Shown here one piece after another: positions 34,588 through 46,961 of a stretch of DNA of 62,727 bases. Position numbers and translations under genes: made by a program. The stretch spans positions 1-62,727 of the forward strand of contig JANMLN010000127.1 of assembly GCA_031372565.1 (NCBI GenBank). The letters are read 5' to 3'. Below the pieces are notes generated by a model. The model was not told the DNA's origin. It did not search any database and saw nothing but the letters and a program-made list of their open reading frames with translations. Within the stretch, counting starts at the first letter, position 1, and every line of letters starts with the position of its first letter. Origin of the DNA: Gemmatimonadota bacterium (GTDB lineage Bacteria > Gemmatimonadota > Gemmatimonadetes > Gemmatimonadales > Gemmatimonadaceae).

Positions 34588-36675
34588 TCAGGCGCCGAAG
34601 CGGCCGCGCAGCAGGGCGCGCAGGTCCACGGTGCTGGGCGGCGGCGTGCTCTCGGGAGCGGGCACGTCGTTGTCGCCCAAGGCGACGCGCTCCATTGTGT
34701 CGCGCACGCCGCGGTCGAGGAAGCGCGAGAGCTGGTCGAGGGTGTAGTCGGCGCCGCGGCGCGTGTTGTAGGAATGCAGCGGATAGGTGACGAAGAGATG
34801 ATTGCGCGCGCGCGTGGTAGCCACATACATGAGCCGGCGTTCTTCCTCTTCCTCGTCGTCGTCGCCCAAGGCGCGCGCCATCGGGAAGTAGCCATCGACG
34901 GCCCAGATGAGGAAGACGACGTCCCACTCGCGTCCCTTGGAGGAGTGCGCCGTGGAGAGCACGAGCACGTCGTCCTCTTCGTCAGCCGCGCCGGAGAGAT
35001 CCTGCGTGCCCGACGGTGGTTCGAGGGCGATGGCGCTCAGGAACGCCTGCCGCGATGGATAGCCGGCGGCGATCACCTGCAACTGGTCGAGGTCGGCCAG
35101 CCGCGGCTCGGGGCGGTCGTACTTGTCGCGGAGCAGGGCATCGTACATGGTGCGCACGCGCGCGATGTCGGCACTCACGCGCGACGTGTCCGGTGTTTCG
35201 CCCGCGCGCAGCAGCTCGAGCAGCTGCACGAGCGACGAGTGGGCGGTGCGGGCCCGCGGTGGCGGCGCAAAGCGGCCGAAGGCGCCGGAGGTCCACGCCA
35301 TGTCGGCCATCGCGCCGATGGCGGCGCGTGCGGTCTGCTCCCCGATGCCGGGCAGGAGCATGAGGATGCGGTACCAGCTGATCTCGTCGCGCGGATTCTC
35401 GAGAATGCGCAGAAAGGCGAGCACATCCTTGACGTGCGCAGCTTCGAGGAAGCGGATTCCGCCCCACTTGTCGAAGGGGATCTTGCGACGGGAGAGCTCG
35501 ATTTCCAGGTCGGCCGACATGTAGCCCGCGCGGAAGAGCACCGCCATCTCGCGGAGCGGGACGCCCTCCTCGTGCAGCTCGAGGATGCGGTCGGCGACGA
35601 AGCGGGTCTGCTGGCCCTCGTCACGCGCGGCGACGAGCCAGGGCTTCTCGCCGCCGGTGCGTGCGGTGCGCAGCTCCTTGGTGAACCGTTCGCGAGCGCG
35701 CGAAATGAGCGTGTTGGTGCAGGCCAGAATGGGCGCCGTCGAGCGGTAGTTCTGCTCGAGCGTGACGACCCTGGTGCCGGGGAACTGCACCGGGAAGTCG
35801 AGGATGTTGCGGATCGTCGCGCCGCGGAACGCATAGATGCTTTGCGCATCGTCGCCCACGACGGTGATGCGACCGTGCGCGCCGGCCAGCCCGCGGAGGA
35901 TGCGCGACTGCAGCGCGTTGGTGTCCTGGTACTCGTCGACGAGCACGTGATCCCACAAGCCGCTGATGCGCGCGGCCAGATCCGGCGCCTGCTCGAGCAA
36001 CAGCGTCCAGAAGAGCAGCAGGTCGTCGTAATCAACGAGATTGCGATCCGCCTTTCGCCGTGTGTAATCGGCCCAGATCTTGGCGATCTCCTCCTCGTAC
36101 TCCGCGAAGTTGGGATACTCCTCGTGGAGGAGGTTGTGCAGCGACTTCTCGGTGTTGACGTGGGTCGAGTAGAGGTGGTGCAGCGTTTCCTTCTTGGGGA
36201 AGCGCTTGTTCTTCGTGGCGACGCCGGAGTGCGCGCGCCCGACCTGCATCAGGTCCTCGGCGTCGGCCTGGTCCATGATGCTGAAGTCTGCGGCCAAACC
36301 CGCGGCCGGTCCGAAGGTGCGGAGCAGGCGGTGGGCCGTGCCGTGGAAGGTGCCGCCCTGCACGTGGCGTCCCTGCGCGCCGATCAGGCGCTCGACGCGT
36401 GAGAGCATCTCCTGCGCGGCACGTCGCGTGAAGGTGAGCAGCAGGATGCGCTCGGGGCGGACGCCGGTCTCGATGAGGTAGGCGACGCGATGCACCAGCG
36501 TGCGCGTCTTGCCGGTGCCGGCCCCCGCGACGATGAGGAGCGGGCTGCCCAACGCGGTGGCTCCCTCGCGCTGCTCCGGGTTCAGCCCGTCGAGGTGGTC
36601 GGGGGCGTGTTCGGAGCGCTCGGGGATGTCACGGTCGCGGTCGCGCGGGGCGTAGACGCGGGGGGCGTCGGGCAT
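34588..36675 (-). CDS. UvrD/PcrA-family SF1 DNA helicase
   Basis: AGAGTGKT, VDEYQD, VGDDAQSIY.FRGA, LEQNYRS, STAHSSKGRE, EERRLMYVATTRA. Confidence 0.95.
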   Translation of the reverse strand: MPDAPRVYAPRDRDRDIPERSEHAPDHLDGLNPEQREGATALGSPLLIVAGAGTGKTRTLVHRVAYLIETGVRPERILLLTFTRRAAQEMLSRVERLIGAQGRHVQGGTFHGTAHRLLRTFGPAAGLAADFSIMDQADAEDLMQVGRAHSGVATKNKRFPKKETLHHLYSTHVNTEKSLHNLLHEEYPNFAEYEEEIAKIWADYTRRKADRNLVDYDDLLLFWTLLLEQAPDLAARISGLWDHVLVDEYQDTNALQSRILRGLAGAHGRITVVGDDAQSIYAFRGATIRNILDFPVQFPGTRVVTLEQNYRSTAPILACTNTLISRARERFTKELRTARTGGEKPWLVAARDEGQQTRFVADRILELHEEGVPLREMAVLFRAGYMSADLEIELSRRKIPFDKWGGIRFLEAAHVKDVLAFLRILENPRDEISWYRILMLLPGIGEQTARAAIGAMADMAWTSGAFGRFAPPPRARTAHSSLVQLLELLRAGETPDTSRVSADIARVRTMYDALLRDKYDRPEPRLADLDQLQVIAAGYPSRQAFLSAIALEPPSGTQDLSGAADEEDDVLVLSTAHSSKGREWDVVFLIWAVDGYFPMARALGDDDEEEEERRLMYVATTRARNHLFVTYPLHSYNTRRGADYTLDQLSRFLDRGVRDTMERVALGDNDVPAPESTPPPSTVDLRALLRGRFGA

Positions 36676-36704
36676 GGAGCGAATATATGCCGAAGGGAAG
36701 CCCC

Positions 36705-36787
36705 TTGTCGTCCTGAGCGAAGCGAAGGACCTGCTTGTGGTGGGCGGGGCGAAAAAAGCGGGTCCTTCGCTGCGCTCAGGACGACAA
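36705..36787. repeat. Inverted pair of REP-like repeats (36705-36736 and 36756-36787)
   Basis: TTGTCGTCCTGAGCGAAGCGAAGGACCTGCTT ... AAGCGGGTCCTTCGCTGCGCTCAGGACGACAA. Confidence 0.9.
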
Positions 36788-36789
36788 CG

Positions 36790-37986
36790 TCAGCGCGATT
36801 CCGACCGGAAGCGCCAGAACGTCAGCGAGTCCCGCTTGATGCCAAGCAGGCGACGCTCGCCGGGCGCCCGGTCGTTGGTAAGCAGCTCGTGCAGGTCCGA
36901 GAGCACCGAGCCGTTGATGAACAGCGTATGGCCCAGAAAATCACCGCGCACGCGGGTCGCATCGATCGTGTCCATCTCCTTGAGCACGACGAGCGAGTCG
37001 CCACCCAGGCCCAGTCGCCAGACCCCGTTGAGCACGCGCGAGGCGCGCAGCGCTTCGTCTTCGTTGGACGCGTACACCGTGATGCGCTTGGCCTTGGGCA
37101 CGAGGCGCGGCAGCACTTCGCGGCGGAAGAAGCGGGCGTCGACATCGGGCGCGGCGAACACCGCATGGGTGATCGGCGGCACGGAGTCGCCCAGGATGCT
37201 GATGGCGCGCGAGACCACCTCGGAGCCCATGGAGTGCGCCACGAGCAGCACACGGTCGGCGTCGACGCTCGCGGGAAAGTCGCGCAGGAAGCGGGCGAGG
37301 TAGAAGCCCGCATTGCGCGCCGCCTGTTGGTCGCGGACATAGCTCGACATGGCGCCGGCCGACGGCCAGTCGAAGATCAGGACCGCGCCGTCGAGATCGG
37401 TGTCGGCGGCGATCTGCGCCGCGCGGATCGCCGCGTCCTCGAACGACACGTTGTAGCCGTGCACAAAGATGAGGAGCGAGCGCGACGCCGTCGCGGTGAG
37501 CGCATCGGTGACGGCGCGCGCGAACAGGGCGGCATTGGTGCCGCGGACGTCGCGCAGGTACATGTCCTTGGTCGAGTCGGGCTTGTACCAGAAGCGACTG
37601 ACCCGCGTGGTGGGCGGCCGGGGGGTCTCGCCCTGGCGGCGCACGGCATAGCCCGGCACGTTCACCTTCACGAGCGCGAACTGCACCGAGTCGGCGTCGT
37701 CACCGCCGAACATGTCGCCGGGGCGGTCGGTCGTGACGGAGCGGCGCAGCGTGGCCGCGAAGATGGGCACCTGCATCGCGCCCGTATCGAGCGCGGCCCA
37801 CGAACGGCGCGCGGTGGCGCGCGGAGCGGGCGGCCTGGGGGGTGGCGTTGCGGGCGCGACGACGACGGGCGCCACCACCGTTGCGGGCGCCGGACTGGGC
37901 GTGGTTGCTGGCGCAGGCGTGCCGCCGCATGCGGCGATGATGATGAGGCTGAGAGCGAACGGCGTGCTGCGCGTCAGGCGTGCCAT
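36790..37986 (-). CDS. Alpha/beta hydrolase lipoprotein (DUF900-like)
   Basis: Lipobox IAAC, FVHGYNVSF, FDWPS, AHSMG, AAPDVD. Confidence 0.85.
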   Translation of the reverse strand: MARLTRSTPFALSLIIIAACGGTPAPATTPSPAPATVVAPVVVAPATPPPRPPAPRATARRSWAALDTGAMQVPIFAATLRRSVTTDRPGDMFGGDDADSVQFALVKVNVPGYAVRRQGETPRPPTTRVSRFWYKPDSTKDMYLRDVRGTNAALFARAVTDALTATASRSLLIFVHGYNVSFEDAAIRAAQIAADTDLDGAVLIFDWPSAGAMSSYVRDQQAARNAGFYLARFLRDFPASVDADRVLLVAHSMGSEVVSRAISILGDSVPPITHAVFAAPDVDARFFRREVLPRLVPKAKRITVYASNEDEALRASRVLNGVWRLGLGGDSLVVLKEMDTIDATRVRGDFLGHTLFINGSVLSDLHELLTNDRAPGERRLLGIKRDSLTFWRFRSESR

Positions 37987-38007
37987 GCGGGGGCGGCGTG
38001 GGGAGGG

Positions 38008-38056
38008 AGAAGCAGGTCCTTCGCTGCGCTCAGGACGACGGCGCGCTCAGGACGAC
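38008..38056. repeat. REP-like repeat plus partial tandem copy
   Basis: AGAAGCAGGTCCTTCGCTGCGCTCAGGACGAC then GCGCTCAGGACGAC. Confidence 0.88.
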
Positions 38057-38063
38057 ATCGCGC

Positions 38064-38780
38064 TCACGGCGTCGGCGTGAGGAACAACGCCAAAGCTTCC
38101 GGTGACAGCTCGTCCACCGCAAGGTCGAGAATCTCCGACATCACGCCAATCGTCGCGTCCTCGACGTGCGCGCCGATCGACTCCGCCACCGGCTCGCCGC
38201 GAGCGACCAGTTCGGCGGCGATGCTCGTCATGTGCACATCCGTGATCCCGCAGGGCACCATCAGGTCGAAGAAGCTCAGGTCCGTCGTGACATTGAGCGC
38301 GAAGCCATGCCACGTCACCCACTGTCGGGCATGCACGCCGATCGACGCGATCTTGCGGCCCTCGACCCACACACCCGTCTGCCCCTTCTGCCGGCCTGCC
38401 TCGATGCCGAACCGGTCGCACACGCGCATGCACGCTTCCTCGAGCATGCGCAGGTACCAGTGCAGATCGGGCTTGTGCACTTGCAGGTCGACAATCGGGT
38501 ACGCGACCAACTGTCCCGGCCCGTGGAAGGTCACGTCGCCGCCACGCTCCGCCTCGTGCACCTCGACGCCACGGGCATCGAGCAGCGCCCGGCTGGCCGT
38601 GAGGTTCGCCTGCTTGAAGGCGCGGCCCAGCGTGATGACAGGCGGATGCTCGCACAGAATGAGCAGGTCGTTGGCGAGCGTGCCCTCGATGCGCGCACGG
38701 GCGGCGGCACGCTGGATGGCCAGCACCTCCGTCCATGGCCGCCGCCCGTAGCGAACGACGAGCAGGTCGCGCGGCGCCAC
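38064..38780 (-). CDS. lipB: Octanoyltransferase
   Basis: EHPPVITLG, RGGDVTFHGPGQ, KIASIG, HGFALN, PCG. Confidence 0.95.
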   Translation of the reverse strand: MAPRDLLVVRYGRRPWTEVLAIQRAAARARIEGTLANDLLILCEHPPVITLGRAFKQANLTASRALLDARGVEVHEAERGGDVTFHGPGQLVAYPIVDLQVHKPDLHWYLRMLEEACMRVCDRFGIEAGRQKGQTGVWVEGRKIASIGVHARQWVTWHGFALNVTTDLSFFDLMVPCGITDVHMTSIAAELVARGEPVAESIGAHVEDATIGVMSEILDLAVDELSPEALALFLTPTP

Positions 38781-40234: not shown

Positions 40235-41509
40235 TCAGTAGACGAGCATCAGCGGATTCTCGATCATGCGGCGCAGCGTCTGCATGAACCTGGCGCCGAC
40301 CGCGCCATCGATGGCGCGGTGGTCACAGCTCATCGTCACGCGCAGCACGGTGCGGGTACCCAGCGCGCCGTCGACCATGACGACCTGCTCGCTCGCGGTG
40401 CCGATGGCCAGGATGCCGCACTCCGGCGGATTGATGATCGCGGTGAACTGGTCGATGCCGAACATGCCGAGGTTGGACACGGAGAAGGTGGAACCCGTGT
40501 ATTCCTCGGGCTTGAGCTTGCGTTCGCGCGCCTTCCTGGCGAGTTCCTTGGCTTCGCGCGACAGGTCCTTCATGCGCTTCAGGTGCGCGTCGAAGATCAC
40601 CGGCACGATGAGGCCGTCGTCGGTGGCCACGGCCATCCCCAAGTGCACGCGATCGTGCTGGCGGATGCGGTCGCCCAGCCAGTGGCTGTTGACCTCGGGA
40701 TGTTGCGCGAGCGCGGTGGCGACTGCCTTGAGGAGGACGTCGTTCACCGAGACCTTGAAGTCGTCGCCCAGCTCGGCCATCGCGCGGCGGAGCTCCATGA
40801 CCTTCGAAAGGTCGTACTCGGCCGTCAGGAAGAAGGTCGGGATCGGCCCGAGCGACTCGGAGAGCCGCTTGGCGATCGTCTTCCGGATCTGCGTGAGCGG
40901 GATGTCGCGGAAGCCACCGTCGTCCTGAGCGGAGCGAAGGACCTGCTTCTGCGGTTCGCCGACAGGCGAAGCGGCTGGTGAGCTTGCGCCGGCACCGGAG
41001 AGGGCCGCTTCAATGTCCCGCTTGATGATGCGCCCGCCCGGGCCGGAGCCGGCGATGGCGCGGATGTCGAGGCCGGCGTCACCGGCGAGTCGGCGGGCGA
41101 GCGGGGAGGCGCGGTTGAAGGCTGGCGTGTCGCCCGGAGCGGAGGGAGGAGGGAGAAGCGGGTCCTTCGCTTCGCTCAGGACGACGGGGGCGCTCGCGAC
41201 GGGAGGGGGGAGAAGCGGGTCCTTCGCTTCGCTCAGGACGACGCTGGCGGTGACGGCCGAGATGTCCTCACCCGCCGCGCCAATCACGCCGAGCAGCGTA
41301 CCGACGGGTGCGGCCGTCCCCTCGGGCACCAGCCGCTTGAGCAGCACGCCATCCGCGCGGGCGACCAGCTCCATGATCGCCTTGTCGGTCTCGACCTCGG
41401 CGAGCACATCGCCCGACTTCACGACGTCGCCTTCGTTCTTGCTCCACGTCACGAGGCGCCCCTCTTCCATCGTGGGGGAGAGCGCCTCCATCGTCACTTT
41501 CGTCGCCAT
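40235..41509 (-). CDS. pdhC: Pyruvate dehydrogenase E2, one lipoyl domain; linkers contain REP-derived peptides
   Basis: ETDKA lipoyl site, ASPLARRLA...GSGPGGRI binding domain, SNLGM, DHRAIDG. Confidence 0.95.
   Translation of the reverse strand: MATKVTMEALSPTMEEGRLVTWSKNEGDVVKSGDVLAEVETDKAIMELVARADGVLLKRLVPEGTAAPVGTLLGVIGAAGEDISAVTASVVLSEAKDPLLPPPVASAPVVLSEAKDPLLPPPSAPGDTPAFNRASPLARRLAGDAGLDIRAIAGSGPGGRIIKRDIEAALSGAGASSPAASPVGEPQKQVLRSAQDDGGFRDIPLTQIRKTIAKRLSESLGPIPTFFLTAEYDLSKVMELRRAMAELGDDFKVSVNDVLLKAVATALAQHPEVNSHWLGDRIRQHDRVHLGMAVATDDGLIVPVIFDAHLKRMKDLSREAKELARKARERKLKPEEYTGSTFSVSNLGMFGIDQFTAIINPPECGILAIGTASEQVVMVDGALGTRTVLRVTMSCDHRAIDGAVGARFMQTLRRMIENPLMLVY
40919..40950. repeat. REP-like repeat inside pdhC (encodes QKQVLRSAQDD)
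   Basis: GTCGTCCTGAGCGGAGCGAAGGACCTGCTTCT. Confidence 0.9.
41154..41242. repeat. Two tandem REP-like repeats inside pdhC (57-nt period; each encodes VVLSEAKDPLL)
   Basis: AGAAGCGGGTCCTTCGCTTCGCTCAGGACGAC at 41154 and 41211. Confidence 0.92.
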
Positions 41510-41546
41510 CAGCAGTCCCTGGTGTCGGCCGGCCGCATGGGCGGGC

Positions 41547-42530
41547 TCAGTCGAGGTAGCACACGGCGCGCACCGCCTTCACCGTCTTGGCGAGGTCGGG
41601 CTTTGCGGCCTTTTCGAGCGACTTCGTGTACGGCATCGGCGTATCGGCCTGATGCACGCGGATGATCGGCGCATCGAGGCTGTCGAAACATTCGCGCTGG
41701 ATGTAGTCGACCACCTGCGCCCCCATGCCGCAGACTTCCCACCCTTCCTCGAGCACCACGGCGCGGTTGGTCTTCATGACCGTGGCCACGATCGCGGGGA
41801 CATCCATCGGGCGCAGCGTCCGCAGGTCGAGCACTTCGACCTGCACGCCGTCCTTTGCCAGCACGTCGGCGGCCTGGAGCGCCACGTTCACCATCTTGCC
41901 GTAGCTGATGATCGAGGCGTCGGTCCCGGCGCGCTTCACTTCAGCCTTGCCGAGCGGAATGACGTAGTCGGCGCTGTCGGGGACTTCGCCCTTCACGTTG
42001 TAGAGCATCTCCCCTTCGAGCACCATCACCGGATTGTCGTCGCGAATGGCCGCCTTGAGCAGGCCCTTGGCGTCGGCCGGTGTGCCCGGTGCCACGACCT
42101 TGAGTCCCGGGATGTGCGCGAGCCACGACTCCCACGCCTGCGAGTGCTGCGCGCCCAACTGCAGCGCGGCGCCGTTGGGCCCGCGGAAGACCATCGGCAT
42201 GTTGAACTGGCCGCCCGACATGTAGAGCATCTTGGCGGCCGCGTTGACGACCTGGTCGAGCGCCAACAGCGCGAAGTTCCAGGTCATGAACTCGATGATC
42301 GGACGCAGTCCCACCATGGCGGCTCCCACGCCGACGCCGGCGAAGCCGAGTTCGGTGATGGGGGTGTCGACCACGCGCATCTCGCCGAACTCCTGCAGGA
42401 GTCCCTTGGACACCTTGTATGCGCCCTGATAGACGGCGACTTCCTCGCCCATGAGGAAGACGCGATCGTCGCGCCGCATCTCCTCGCGGAGGGCGAGGTT
42501 GAGGGCATCGCGATAGGTCATGATGGCCAT
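41547..42530 (-). CDS. pdhB: Pyruvate dehydrogenase E1 beta
   Basis: GEEVAVYQGAYKVS, DTPITE, EFMTWNF, GAQHSQ. Confidence 0.95.
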   Translation of the reverse strand: MAIMTYRDALNLALREEMRRDDRVFLMGEEVAVYQGAYKVSKGLLQEFGEMRVVDTPITELGFAGVGVGAAMVGLRPIIEFMTWNFALLALDQVVNAAAKMLYMSGGQFNMPMVFRGPNGAALQLGAQHSQAWESWLAHIPGLKVVAPGTPADAKGLLKAAIRDDNPVMVLEGEMLYNVKGEVPDSADYVIPLGKAEVKRAGTDASIISYGKMVNVALQAADVLAKDGVQVEVLDLRTLRPMDVPAIVATVMKTNRAVVLEEGWEVCGMGAQVVDYIQRECFDSLDAPIIRVHQADTPMPYTKSLEKAAKPDLAKTVKAVRAVCYLD

Positions 42531-42539
42531 GGCGCCCTC

Positions 42540-43559
42540 CTACCGGTGCGCGGCGTCGGCCGCGTCGCTCGTGGTATCCACCAGCACATCCTCGTAGAGC
42601 GCTTCCGGCGGGAGTTCGGGGCTCGCATCGGCAAAGTCCCAGGCGTCCTGCACTTCGGCCTTGATCTCGGCGTCCAGCGCGGCCACTTCGTCTTCGCTCA
42701 TCTCGCCGGCTTCCTGCATGCGGGCGCGGAGCAGCGTGATCGGGTCACGCTTGAGATACTGGTCCAGCTCGGCCTTGGTGCGATAGGTGCCGCTCACCGC
42801 ATCGGACATCGAGTGACCCATGAAGCGATAGGTGCGCACCTCGAGCAGGGTGGGGGTCCCCTGCGTGCGCGCGCGGTCCACGGCGCGCGCCACCACGTCG
42901 CGCACGGCAAACACGTCCTGCCCGTCCACGACATCGCGTGCCATGTCGTAGCTGCCGGCGCGCTCGTAGATGTCGTGAATCGAGGCCGCCCGCTCGATCG
43001 CGGTGCCCATGCCGTAGCGGTTGTTCTCGATGATGTAGATGACCGGCAGCTTCCAGAGCGCGGCCATGTTGGCGGCTTCGTGGAAGGCGCCGTTGTTGAT
43101 CGCGGCCTCGCCGAAGAAGCAGGCGATGACCTGATCGCCACCGCGATACTTGATGGCGAAGCCGACGCCGGTCGCGATCGGGATGTGCCCGCCGACGATG
43201 CCGTGGCCCCCGAGAAAGTTGCGCGACTTGTCGAACAGGTGCATCGAGCCACCCTTGCCGCGCGCGCAGCCGTCCGAGCGGCCGAAGAGCTCGGCCATGA
43301 TCGACCGCGGCGACATCCCGCGCGCGAGCGCTTGCCCGTGGTCGCGATACGTGGTGATCACGTAGTCATCGGGGCGGAGCATCGAGAGCGTGCCCGTGCT
43401 GACCGCCTCCTGTCCGATGTACAGATGGCAGAAGCCGCCGATCTTGCCGAGCGCGTAGGCCTCGGCGCAGCGCTCCTCGAAGCGGCGCTGCAGGAGCATC
43501 GAGCGAAGCAACTCGCGATTGAGCTGCGCGGAGGCGGGGTCGGTCTTCTTGCGGGCCAT
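42540..43559 (-). CDS. pdhA: Pyruvate dehydrogenase E1 alpha
   Basis: IGGFCHLYIGQEA, TYRDH, GKGGSMH, ENNRY, TYRFMGHSMSD; ATG overlaps the lipA stop. Confidence 0.95.
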   Translation of the reverse strand: MARKKTDPASAQLNRELLRSMLLQRRFEERCAEAYALGKIGGFCHLYIGQEAVSTGTLSMLRPDDYVITTYRDHGQALARGMSPRSIMAELFGRSDGCARGKGGSMHLFDKSRNFLGGHGIVGGHIPIATGVGFAIKYRGGDQVIACFFGEAAINNGAFHEAANMAALWKLPVIYIIENNRYGMGTAIERAASIHDIYERAGSYDMARDVVDGQDVFAVRDVVARAVDRARTQGTPTLLEVRTYRFMGHSMSDAVSGTYRTKAELDQYLKRDPITLLRARMQEAGEMSEDEVAALDAEIKAEVQDAWDFADASPELPPEALYEDVLVDTTSDAADAAHR

Positions 43560-44485
43560 CAGGCGGTGCTCCCGGAGGCGACGCCCGCGGCCTGCACCTG
43601 CTCCCACGCATGGTAGGAGGAGCGCACGAGCGGGCCGGATTCGACGTGCTTGAAGCCCATGGCGTGGCCTTCGCGGCGGAACATGGCGAAGTCGTCGGGG
43701 GTCACGTAGCGATCGAGTGCGATGTGGTCATCCGATGGGCGGAGGTATTGCCCGAGGGTGAGGATGTCGACGTCGACGGTGCGCAGTTCACGCATCGTGA
43801 CGAGCACTTCCTCGTTGGTTTCGCCCATGCCAAGGATGATGCCCGTCTTGGTCGGGATGTCCGGGGCGATGCGCTTGGCGGTGCGGAAGATCTCGAGCAC
43901 ACGCTCGTACCGACCGCCCGGACGCGCCTTCTTGTAGAGGCGCGGGACGGTTTCGGTGTTGTGGTTGTAGATGTCGGGGCGCGCCTCGAGAACGGTGCGA
44001 ATCGAGTCGACGTTGCCCTGAAAGTCGGGCACGAGGACTTCGACCGAGGCCTCGGGGTTGTCGGCCTTGATCGCCTTGATCGTTTCGGCGAAGGCCCAGG
44101 CGCCAAAGTCGGGCAGATCGTCGCGATCAACCGAGGTGAGCACGACGTGGCGGAGCTGCATGCGCGTGGCGGCTTCGGCCACGCGCGCGGGCTCGGCCGG
44201 ATCGTACTTGGGTGGACGTCCGTGCGACACCGCGCAGTAGGCGCAGTTGCGGGTGCAGACGTCGCCCAGAATCATGAAGGTGGCGGTGCCGTGTTCCCAG
44301 CACTCGCCGACGTTGGGGCAGCGGGCCTCTTCGCAGACCGTGTTGAGGTCGAGCTCGCGCATCATCTGCTTGAGGCGCAGGTAGTTCGGACCACCCGGCG
44401 CGCGCACCTTGAGCCAAGGCGGCTTTCGCTCGGGCAGCGGCTCGGCGCGGTGCCGGCCGAGGATCTGATAGAGGGTATCGGTCAT
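43559..44485 (-). CDS. lipA: Lipoyl synthase
   Basis: CEEARCPNVGEC, CTRNCAYC, RSSY. Confidence 0.97.
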   Translation of the reverse strand: MTDTLYQILGRHRAEPLPERKPPWLKVRAPGGPNYLRLKQMMRELDLNTVCEEARCPNVGECWEHGTATFMILGDVCTRNCAYCAVSHGRPPKYDPAEPARVAEAATRMQLRHVVLTSVDRDDLPDFGAWAFAETIKAIKADNPEASVEVLVPDFQGNVDSIRTVLEARPDIYNHNTETVPRLYKKARPGGRYERVLEIFRTAKRIAPDIPTKTGIILGMGETNEEVLVTMRELRTVDVDILTLGQYLRPSDDHIALDRYVTPDDFAMFRREGHAMGFKHVESGPLVRSSYHAWEQVQAAGVASGSTA

Positions 44486-46075: not shown

Positions 46076-46107
46076 AGAAGCAGGTCCTTCGCTTCGCTCA
46101 GGACGAC
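46076..46107. repeat. REP-like repeat
   Basis: AGAAGCAGGTCCTTCGCTTCGCTCAGGACGAC. Confidence 0.9.
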
Positions 46108-46892: not shown

Positions 46893-46961
46893 AGAAGCAG
46901 GTCCTTCGCTGCGCTCAGGATGACTGCGGAGAAGCAGGTCCCTCGCTGCGCTCAGGATGAC
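46893..46961. repeat. Two tandem REP-like repeats (37-nt period)
   Basis: AGAAGCAGGTCCTTCGCTGCGCTCAGGATGAC and AGAAGCAGGTCCCTCGCTGCGCTCAGGATGAC. Confidence 0.9.

Follow-up and report, generated by a model that had tools for sequence, protein, structure and literature searches.

The pyruvate dehydrogenase (PDH) E2 gene pdhC of a Gemmatimonadota bacterium of the family Gemmatimonadaceae (GenBank assembly GCA_031372565.1) contains three copies of a short hairpin repeat, all of which are in frame and located in the linkers between the domains of the encoded dihydrolipoamide acetyltransferase. The gene is found on contig JANMLN010000127.1, whose complete 62,727 nucleotides (nt) are referred to as the window. 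The three segments of pdhC would be copies of a mobile, Ssn-related hairpin repeat that became fixed in frame in the E2 linkers as passengers, a reading to which a probability of roughly 80% is given. The copies are specific to part of the genus, since three of four other species have none in the orthologous gene as far as it is present in their assemblies and one has five, and the hairpin is evident from covariation within a large repeat family of the same genome.

In-frame copies in the E2 linkers

The genome under study, G000, has an assembly of 4.44 Mb in 201 contigs with a G+C content of 68%, and the window is its contig C147; together with five other genomes of the same genus, G001 to G005, six genus genomes were available. 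The unpublished genome G012 is not drawn on for any conclusion. The predicted pdhC product (Table 1) has the domain order of a 2-oxoacid dehydrogenase E2, with PF00364, PF02817, and PF00198 each scoring above its cut-off. Since the repeat copies are situated outside every Pfam domain of the protein, all three are assigned to inter-domain linkers. Their 21-nt cores occupy positions 40922-40942 on the forward strand and 41162-41182 and 41219-41239 on the reverse strand. The direct copies 1 and 2 are spaced by 57 nt, which is 19 codons, and the frame is open through all three copies. Both direct copies have a rare C at unit position 23 plus a pyrimidine tail, and 42 nt are common to them with one mismatch; they would therefore probably go back to one insertion and a tandem duplication. 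The single mismatch of the inverted copy 3 is a rare loop base G, giving Ser. In an AlphaFold model of the E2 protein, built on 60 E2 sequences, the mean predicted local distance difference test (pLDDT) score is 87.9, while values below 50 are found at residues 110-116, 124-129, 175-182, and 184-196. Within copy 1, model confidence is low from residue 91 onwards, and the copy partly extends a helix predicted at residues 84-95.

The 21-nt core GTCCTGAGCGAAGCGAAGGAC has nine matches in the window at up to three mismatches, in comparison to a mean of 0.02 in 100 shuffles; the six cores outside pdhC are found at 36710, 36762, 38016, 46084, 46901, and 46938. In the initial annotation, a repeat had been described that occurs three times in frame inside pdhC and six times between nearby genes. 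The coordinates match and the open reading frame (ORF) is free of stops, and the peptides VVLSEAKDPLL and QKQVLRSAQDD, together with their linker placement, are confirmed by translation and by Pfam analysis. The purine-rich flank, which had been noticed beside several intergenic copies and as PPP in the protein, is borne out in part: the PPP reading in pdhC stands, and 27 of 448 copies have a pyrimidine-rich tract, defined as 13 or more of 15 bases, behind the unit, versus 0.3% of random 15-mers.

Lineage specificity was assessed on E2 orthologues, which were found in all 41 genomes searched; the 30 best loci were aligned, and a codon alignment was used for the genus, from which G001 was left out for the linker-2 copy because its contig starts 10 codons past that site. 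The PDH E2 of G003, which is 86% identical, contains five copies, three in linker 1 (two direct, one inverted) and two in linker 2 (one in each orientation); copies 2 and 3 of the window have aligned counterparts in its second linker-1 copy and its inverted copy of linker 2, respectively. Even at five mismatches, no repeat copy was detected in the full-length PDH E2 genes of G002 and G005 or in that of G004, which is present from residue 130. The initial annotation had suggested an alignment with orthologues as a check of whether the peptides are insertions; they are missing from these same-genus orthologues, and the same peptides were not seen in repeat-free genomes in this orthologue comparison. 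The E2 proteins are of similar length with copies (G000, 424 amino acids; G003, 437) and without copies (G002, 428; G005, 426); therefore, the copies replace Ala/Pro linker rather than lengthen it. When the core is searched with M at the loop and at up to two mismatches, the genus genomes contain 420 (G000), 120 (G003), 111 (G001), 89 (G005), 2 (G002), and 2 (G004) copies, at a completeness of 94% for G003, 79% for G001, and 85% for G002 and G004, the latter two being fragmented.

PDH is not the only E2 concerned. A sucB-like E2 paralogue of G005, 37% identical to pdhC, contains four repeat copies in a third frame, which are read as HPERSEGSA twice in linker 1 and as RPERSEGPA twice in linker 2, the Pfam domains of the protein being located at residues 20-90, 128-162, and 214-441. 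The sucB-like orthologues in G000 (contig C150), G001, and G003 are without repeat copies. The earlier idea of a repeat family building linkers in a core enzyme is thus supported by the 451 copies in the genome, by their absence in orthologues, by the five copies in G003, and by the other E2 in G005. A protein search with E2 residues 85-125 was uninformative, since only the query passed an E value of 0.001 among 696 candidates.

In other genera of the family, linker 1 has a conserved peptide, EAQGEAS-PPQEK, followed by ATEQAPHA. A second repeat family behind these peptides was ruled out; elsewhere in four genomes, the DNA has only weak, GC-rich matches, and different genera use different codons. 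A conserved linker motif is therefore seen here and not a genomic repeat.

Copies in coding sequence show hints of subsequent adjustment towards residues that fit a linker better. The rare loop base G, by which Phe or Cys is changed to Ser, is present in each of the three internal copies with a reverse-frame reading, those of pdhC and of genes that are xdh-like and dnaE2-like, respectively; among non-coding copies, it is found in 15 of 402. In the forward frame, copies 1 and 2 of pdhC and a copy in valS have the rare C at unit position 23, by which Leu is changed to Pro and which occurs in 14 of 402 non-coding copies. The E2 copies of G003 encode the same Ser, and Pro in two of the three direct copies. 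Both of the changed positions are outside the stem.

The repeat family and its arrangement in the genome

At up to three mismatches, 451 copies are present in G000 (126 exact, 195 with one, 61 with two, and 69 with three mismatches), spread over 107 of the 201 contigs and over both strands. When the 435 copies whose flanks are complete are aligned, a unit of 32-33 nt with sharp edges and unrelated flanks emerges, which is composed of T, the tag GTC, the 21-nt core, and CTGCTT-n-T. The core is laid out as a 5-bp stem, an internal loop of GA opposite GA, a 2-bp GC stem, and a GNA loop. Conservation is highest around the palindrome, with the tag bases G, T, and C retained in 432, 430, and 432 copies, T or C before GTC in 387 (TGTC in 250, CGTC in 137), and C directly 3' of the palindrome in 427. 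At the loop base, A (212 copies) and C (190) predominate over G (20) and T (13). Where a stem pair differs from the consensus on both sides, it still pairs in 57 of 60 cases, the compensatory pairs being A-T at the outer (36), C-G at the second (6), and A-T at the inner position (5), while the positions of the GA/GA internal loop are never both changed together. Relatives have stem variants that are likewise matched on both sides (ATCCT..AGGAT, GCCCT..AGGGC). The hairpin is accepted because of this stem covariation, not because of folding energy.

The unit corresponds to about 11 codons, and in five of the six frames no fewer than 394 of 446 units are free of stops. Stops occur in 1 and 6 units in the forward frames F0 and F2 and in 10, 6, and 52 units in the reverse frames, while the remaining forward frame has TGA in 429 units.

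Related cores are widespread. The exact 19-nt core TCCTGAGCGMAGCGAAGGA is found at no fewer than 126 loci of species-representative genomes, which, among the matches listed, belong to Gemmatimonadota, Acidobacteriota, Chloroflexota, Verrucomicrobiota, Bacteroidota, Planctomycetota, Omnitrophota, Patescibacteria, Bacillota, Nitrospirota, and Proteobacteria. The cross-phylum consensus of these listed matches, cTGTCATCCTGAGCGMAGCGAAGGATCTc, has sharp edges and the same TGTC tag; in inverted pairs among them, the stem is lengthened by lineage-specific sequence.

In G000, 141 sites are single copies and 123 are clusters of up to nine copies. The 187 close pairs, that is, neighbours within 150 nt, comprise 135 direct and 52 forward-then-reverse pairs and none in reverse-then-forward order. 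At distances of 150-4000 nt, the four orientations are even (22, 21, 20, and 18), by which a composite element enclosing genes is ruled out. For many of the "single" copies, a partial, inverted 3' half comes next, or arrays of the 5' half alone stand in front.

According to rough gene calls, 370 copies are intergenic, 36 extend over a gene edge, and 45 are "inside" genes. The density is highest in convergent intergenic regions (93 copies in 58.7 kb), with 152 copies in 225 kb of tandem and 47 copies in 113 kb of divergent intergenic sequence. Most of the 45 "inside" copies are located within the first 60 codons and may precede the true start; one triple (C75) apparently lies in two ORFs fused by the gene caller, and two three-mismatch matches (C78, C176) look like chance. 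Besides those in pdhC, credible internal copies are found at residue 791 of 927 in valS, at 447 of 772 in an xdh-like molybdopterin subunit, at 938 of 1194 in a dnaE2-like polymerase, and at 209 of 452 in the central loop of a major facilitator superfamily (MFS) transporter. Where checked, these copies lie in regions that vary between relatives. The valS region of G000 differs in all five relatives, and the xdh-like copy is in a variable loop and is common only to G000 and its nearest relative, G001. At the dnaE2-like site, a decayed forward copy, read as HPERSAGAAS, is found directly before the intact one.

Known repeat systems and a candidate nuclease

Comparison with the published systems refers to those portions of the respective reports that are covered here. 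The closest likeness is to the Ssn/SRM system. The NTS motif of Neisseria consists of a (C/T)GTC tag, a stem starting with AT, a GC-GMA-(V)-GC tip, the returning stem, and C; cleavage depends most on the three bases upstream of the palindrome and binding on the C that follows it (PMC11893778). Exactly these bases are the most conserved positions of the present repeat. In common with the Ssn/SRM system are, furthermore, an oriented hairpin with the (C/T)GTC upstream tag and the GC-GMA-GC tip, hundreds of copies mostly outside genes, and the small GIY-YIG gene that is bracketed by copies in G000 and G005. The stem sequence with its conserved GA/GA internal loop is different. In Neisseria, NTS are rare in genes (2%), with translated copies not being mentioned in the portions covered, and the NTS-gene-NTS layout has been proposed to limit replacement by incoming single-stranded DNA (PMC11893778). 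Supplementary Data 4 of that study contains three Gemmatimonadota entries, among which Gemmatimonas aurantiaca and G. groenlandica are at chance level and without ssnA (PMC11893778).

G000 has three GIY-YIG matches, two in long frames (659 and 425 amino acids), which we take to be UvrC-like, comparable pairs being present in each genus genome, and one in a small gene encoding a single-domain protein of 122 amino acids. This is the only small GIY-YIG gene in G000. Two forward repeat copies are located 80-110 nt upstream of it and a reverse copy encodes its last 18 residues, the gene and the bracketing copies spanning positions 33364-33868 of contig C168; a 55%-identical homologue in G005 is bracketed likewise. 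Nearest to the 122-amino acid protein are Atlas clusters of GIY-YIG proteins with 95-101 amino acids, a weak match to PDB 1zg2 is found, and no NCBIfam match was obtained. From its arrangement, this small single-domain putative nuclease is the likely partner of the repeat, which would work like SRM and probably is one. REP-associated tyrosine transposases (RAYT; PF01797, Y1_Tnp) were searched for in all six genus genomes and none was found, and they are rejected as the partner; DUF559, absent from G000, was likewise rejected.

Likening the repeat to Rickettsia palindromic elements (RPEs) and to CGTC-tagged repetitive extragenic palindromes (REPs), as was done in the initial annotation, proved apt (PMC3733652). 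In CGTC-tagged REPs, the tag is CGTC, TGTC, or CCTC, the stem measures 8-9 bp and opens with complementary A/T pairs, the loop has 4-5 nt, and the tail fits CCA; a dedicated transposase was reported to be lacking (PMC3733652). Short tagged palindromes in species-variable number, without RAYT and partly intragenic, are common to both. Of the nine stem positions found here, two are G.A; G-C forms the first pair in 388 of 451 copies, and A-T in the consensus across phyla. Differences are seen in the tip, a GNA triloop of 3 nt, in the tail, which reads CCT(GCTT), or TCT in other phyla, instead of CCA, in the many direct tandem arrays (135 of 187 close pairs), and in the presence of three to five copies in one gene. 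Additional file 3 of the same report already lists REP-encoded residues in E2 genes, namely at residues 190-204 of the 2-oxoglutarate dehydrogenase (OGDH) E2 Oter_4191 and 127-142 of the dihydrolipoamide acetyltransferase Oter_4192, both from Opitutus terrae, and at 180-187 of the PDH E2 Sala_1235 from Sphingopyxis alaskensis, positions that fit linkers (PMC3733652). RPEs, about 100-150 bp long and confined to Rickettsia (PMC10969869), are similar in that palindromic repeats occur in frame in housekeeping genes and are read as extra peptide with the host function apparently kept. The present unit of 32-33 nt, whose core is found in many phyla and which within genes sits here only in linkers or variable loops, resembles RPEs in its working but differs in unit size and is not a member. 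REP/REPIN-RAYT systems likewise have high-copy hairpins, as singles and as inverted doublets able to form a long hairpin, that are enriched after gene ends; they differ in the Y1 transposase, which is missing in the six genus genomes, and in the tag, which is GTC here and not GTAG.

The finding thus belongs to a known class, that of intragenic repeats of the REP/RPE type, which have already been recorded in E2 genes. Literature searches with the peptide and DNA strings of the repeat returned no relevant publication; the motif is not in the RepRanger paper, in the covered text and supplement of PMC3733652, or in 12 of the 14 supplementary files of PMC11893778, and searches for palindromic repeats in connection with dihydrolipoamide or linkers and for Gemmatimonad repeats gave nothing specific. 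What is added here is the multiplicity within one genus, whose E2 genes contain three, five, and four copies in two paralogues and three frames, together with a small signal of later peptide changes and the link to a variant of the Ssn-type hairpin, present with its core in many phyla, that is missed by the published pattern.

Table 1. Coordinates of pdhC, its domains, the repeat copies, and related loci. Positions without a genome or contig name refer to the window.
Feature	Location	Strand	Basis
pdhC, PDH E2 (dihydrolipoamide acetyltransferase), intact, 424 amino acids	40235..41509	-	ORF and translation, stop-free
Lipoyl domain codons, residues 4-76	41282..41500	-	Pfam PF00364 (Biotin_lipoyl)
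E3/E1-binding domain codons, residues 133-167, between direct pair and inverted copy	41009..41113	-	Pfam PF02817 (E3_binding)
Catalytic acyltransferase domain codons, residues 200-422	40244..40912	-	Pfam PF00198 (2-oxoacid_dh)
Repeat copy 1, coding-strand forward, VVLSEAKDPLL, residues 90-100, linker 1	41211..41242	-	exact core match
Repeat copy 2, coding-strand forward, VVLSEAKDPLL, residues 109-119, linker 1	41154..41185	-	exact core match
Repeat copy 3, coding-strand reverse, QKQVLRSAQDD, residues 187-197, linker 2	40919..40950	+	core match, 1 mismatch
Intergenic inverted pair, forward copy 36710 and reverse copy 36762	36707..36785	.	core match
Single intergenic copy just below lipB	38008..38039	-	core match
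Single intergenic copy	46076..46107	-	core match
Two tandem intergenic copies (46901, 46938)	46893..46961	-	core match
sucB-like E2 locus, copies at 731, 767, 944, 986 of locus	G005:C17:4400-6600		core match
Single in-frame copies in valS, xdh-like, dnaE2-like, MFS genes	C201:15703, C35:1962, C40:3608, C95:28926		core match
Small GIY-YIG gene, 122 amino acids, single-domain	G000:C168:33500-33868		Pfam GIY-YIG, 40.6 bits
55%-identical GIY-YIG homologue, bracketed likewise by repeat	G005:C16:25011-25292		homology to 122-amino acid protein

Explanations of the pdhC copies

The pdhC copies are most likely tolerated passengers. Copies would spread within the genome, and selection would remove those that break genes. 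A copy landing in a disordered Ala/Pro-rich linker would survive because the unit comprises about 11 codons and is open in five of six frames; the E2 linkers would thus be permissive sites that were hit repeatedly in the genus. Later point changes from Phe or Cys to Ser and from Leu to Pro would make the peptide more linker-like and leave the stem untouched. The gene would then be a natural example of how short mobile hairpins survive in an essential enzyme by in-frame, stop-free landing in disordered linkers.

Several observations weigh against this reading or parts of it. None of the 451 copies is overlapped by the published degenerate SRM pattern, whose 27 matches in the genome are all elsewhere; this also means that a variant is missed by the pattern and that Ssn surveys may therefore undercount. 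The small GIY-YIG gene was not found in the assemblies of G001 and G003, which have 111 and 120 copies, and nuclease homologues in genomes G006, G008, G023, G025, G027, and G037 have no core within about 1.5 kb or up to the contig end. By nearest-neighbour folding, the stability of the hairpin is not unusual (z of -0.04 to -1.15), and its covariation may be inflated by inheritance within subfamilies. To our knowledge, sheared G.A pairs and GNA triloops are not represented in the nearest-neighbour parameters. The Ser/Pro signal comprises three copies each, the direct pair of pdhC being probably one duplicated event. The xdh-like copy in G001 still reads Phe, which suggests that the Ser change in G000 came after insertion, and Phe is thus also tolerated. 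Among the 150 closest E2 cluster representatives (clusters at 50% identity), none has any of the five peptide readings, so that E2 as a general sink for the repeat family is unsupported. The placement of copies relative to genes depends on a codon log-odds model trained on long ORFs, by which 3699 genes covering 89.5% of the genome were called only roughly. Finally, the contigs obtained from Logan for four runs of one study (X1-X4) all end at repeat copies, and none bridges any of them.

The last point bears on the possibility of an assembly artefact, in which repeat k-mers would have been threaded into pdhC, or the 57-nt period collapsed or duplicated, while the true gene would have fewer copies or none. 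The best of the four runs holds 65% of the sampled words, and the contigs of all four were compared with positions 40700-41500, parts of which they cover. Because the contigs broke at the repeats, the reads neither confirm nor refute the assembly; the pieces are short, and apparent "joints" derive from other repeat pairs. An artefact would be favoured by the assembly of G000 being in 201 contigs and by the extreme abundance of the repeat in the same kind of sample, where Logan word depth is in the thousands. It is nevertheless considered very improbable, since the frame is open through three copies with a period of 19 codons and since in the assembly of a different species, G003, aligned positions of both linkers are likewise occupied by copies, whose flanks have diverged and which show variants of their own. 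The coding copies also contain rare variants that random threading would not pick, and the unit of 33 nt is short. Current assemblers work with k-mers and reads that exceed this length. In the four sediment metagenome runs, the summed contig depth at positions 40916-40969 and 41132-41239 of the window is in the thousands, compared with about 0-20 in the flanks; the repeat is therefore abundant across the community and not only in G000.

More weight, though still on the unlikely side, is given to an explanation that keeps the passengers but regards the repeat as an orphan CGTC/TGTC-tagged REP, spread by recombination, slippage, or an unrelated enzyme, with the GIY-YIG gene being incidental. It would accord with the CGTC-tagged REPs being reported without a dedicated transposase in the covered portions of PMC3733652, with the small GIY-YIG gene lacking in two of the four repeat-rich genus genomes, with the failure of the SRM pattern to match any copy, and with the many other G000 genes that are also flanked by forward...reverse copies. 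On the other hand, the bracketed layout recurs on the G005 homologue, and the tag, the post-palindrome C, and the GC-GMA-GC tip are common with NTS at positions that the nuclease of that system needs (PMC11893778). Neisseria dRS3, which is CGTC-1, has itself been assigned to Ssn (PMC3733652, PMC11893778), and the lack of RAYT in the genus and of DUF559 in G000 leaves these enzymes out of account. The Ssn-related passenger reading is therefore preferred.

A domesticated function, for which copies would be kept in pdhC either as an mRNA helix that slows translation or alters decay or as nuclease target sites that restrict exchange of the segment for incoming single-stranded DNA, is regarded as improbable. 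The initial annotation had suggested that the inverted copies around the binding-domain codons could pair in the mRNA. In the predicted RNA fold of positions 40900-41260, the inverted copy does pair with one of the direct copies along roughly 33 bp that enclose these codons, with a minimum free energy of -184.6 kcal/mol, a z score of -6.5, and none of 100 shuffles being as good; a preference for inverted orientation at that distance is not seen. The helix is predicted because the copies are reverse complements, and any two inverted copies would fold in this way, which gives the prediction little weight. With even orientations at 150-4000 nt, the layout in pdhC is expected by chance half the time and needs no special explanation. 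Domestication would further be in line with the near-perfect state of the pdhC copies (0, 0, and 1 mismatch), with a forward...reverse layout equal to that flanking the nuclease gene, and with the linker-2 copy of G000 and G003, which differs on both sides of the stem (GTCCT/AGGAC vs GCCC-/AGGGC) at the cost of two amino-acid changes. This stem difference may, however, result from conversion by, or insertion of, another subfamily in these genomes; moreover, three species of the same genus manage without copies, and none of the 150 related E2 representatives has them.

A more far-reaching reading can also be formulated, which is offered as speculation and is regarded as improbable. E2 linkers in the genus might be repeatedly rebuilt from Ssn-type units under a double constraint, and the forward...reverse copies might mark the binding-domain module for nuclease-controlled exchange. 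Equally conjectural is the corresponding division of the unit, in which stem, tag, and GA/GA loop would be kept for a partner acting at the DNA level, while the loop base and the post-palindrome base would be tuned to Ser and Pro. If this were true, a selfish repeat would be both a source of protein linkers and a handle on domain-level gene flow.

For annotation, VVLSEAKDL, PERSEG, and LR(S/F/C)AQDD may serve as markers of translated or mistranslated copies. A scan of the window against Rfam returned no family at gathering score. By inspection, pdhC presumably belongs to a gene run in the order lipA, E1 alpha, E1 beta, E2 (pdhC), lipoamide dehydrogenase, and lipB. Two long antisense ORFs at 36490-38751 (+, 753 amino acids) and 41013-43616 (+, 867 amino acids) overlap real genes and are high-G+C artefacts, with a codon score of -0.13 versus +0.56 for pdhC; they contain repeat-derived peptides such as SFAALRTT and could mislead annotation.

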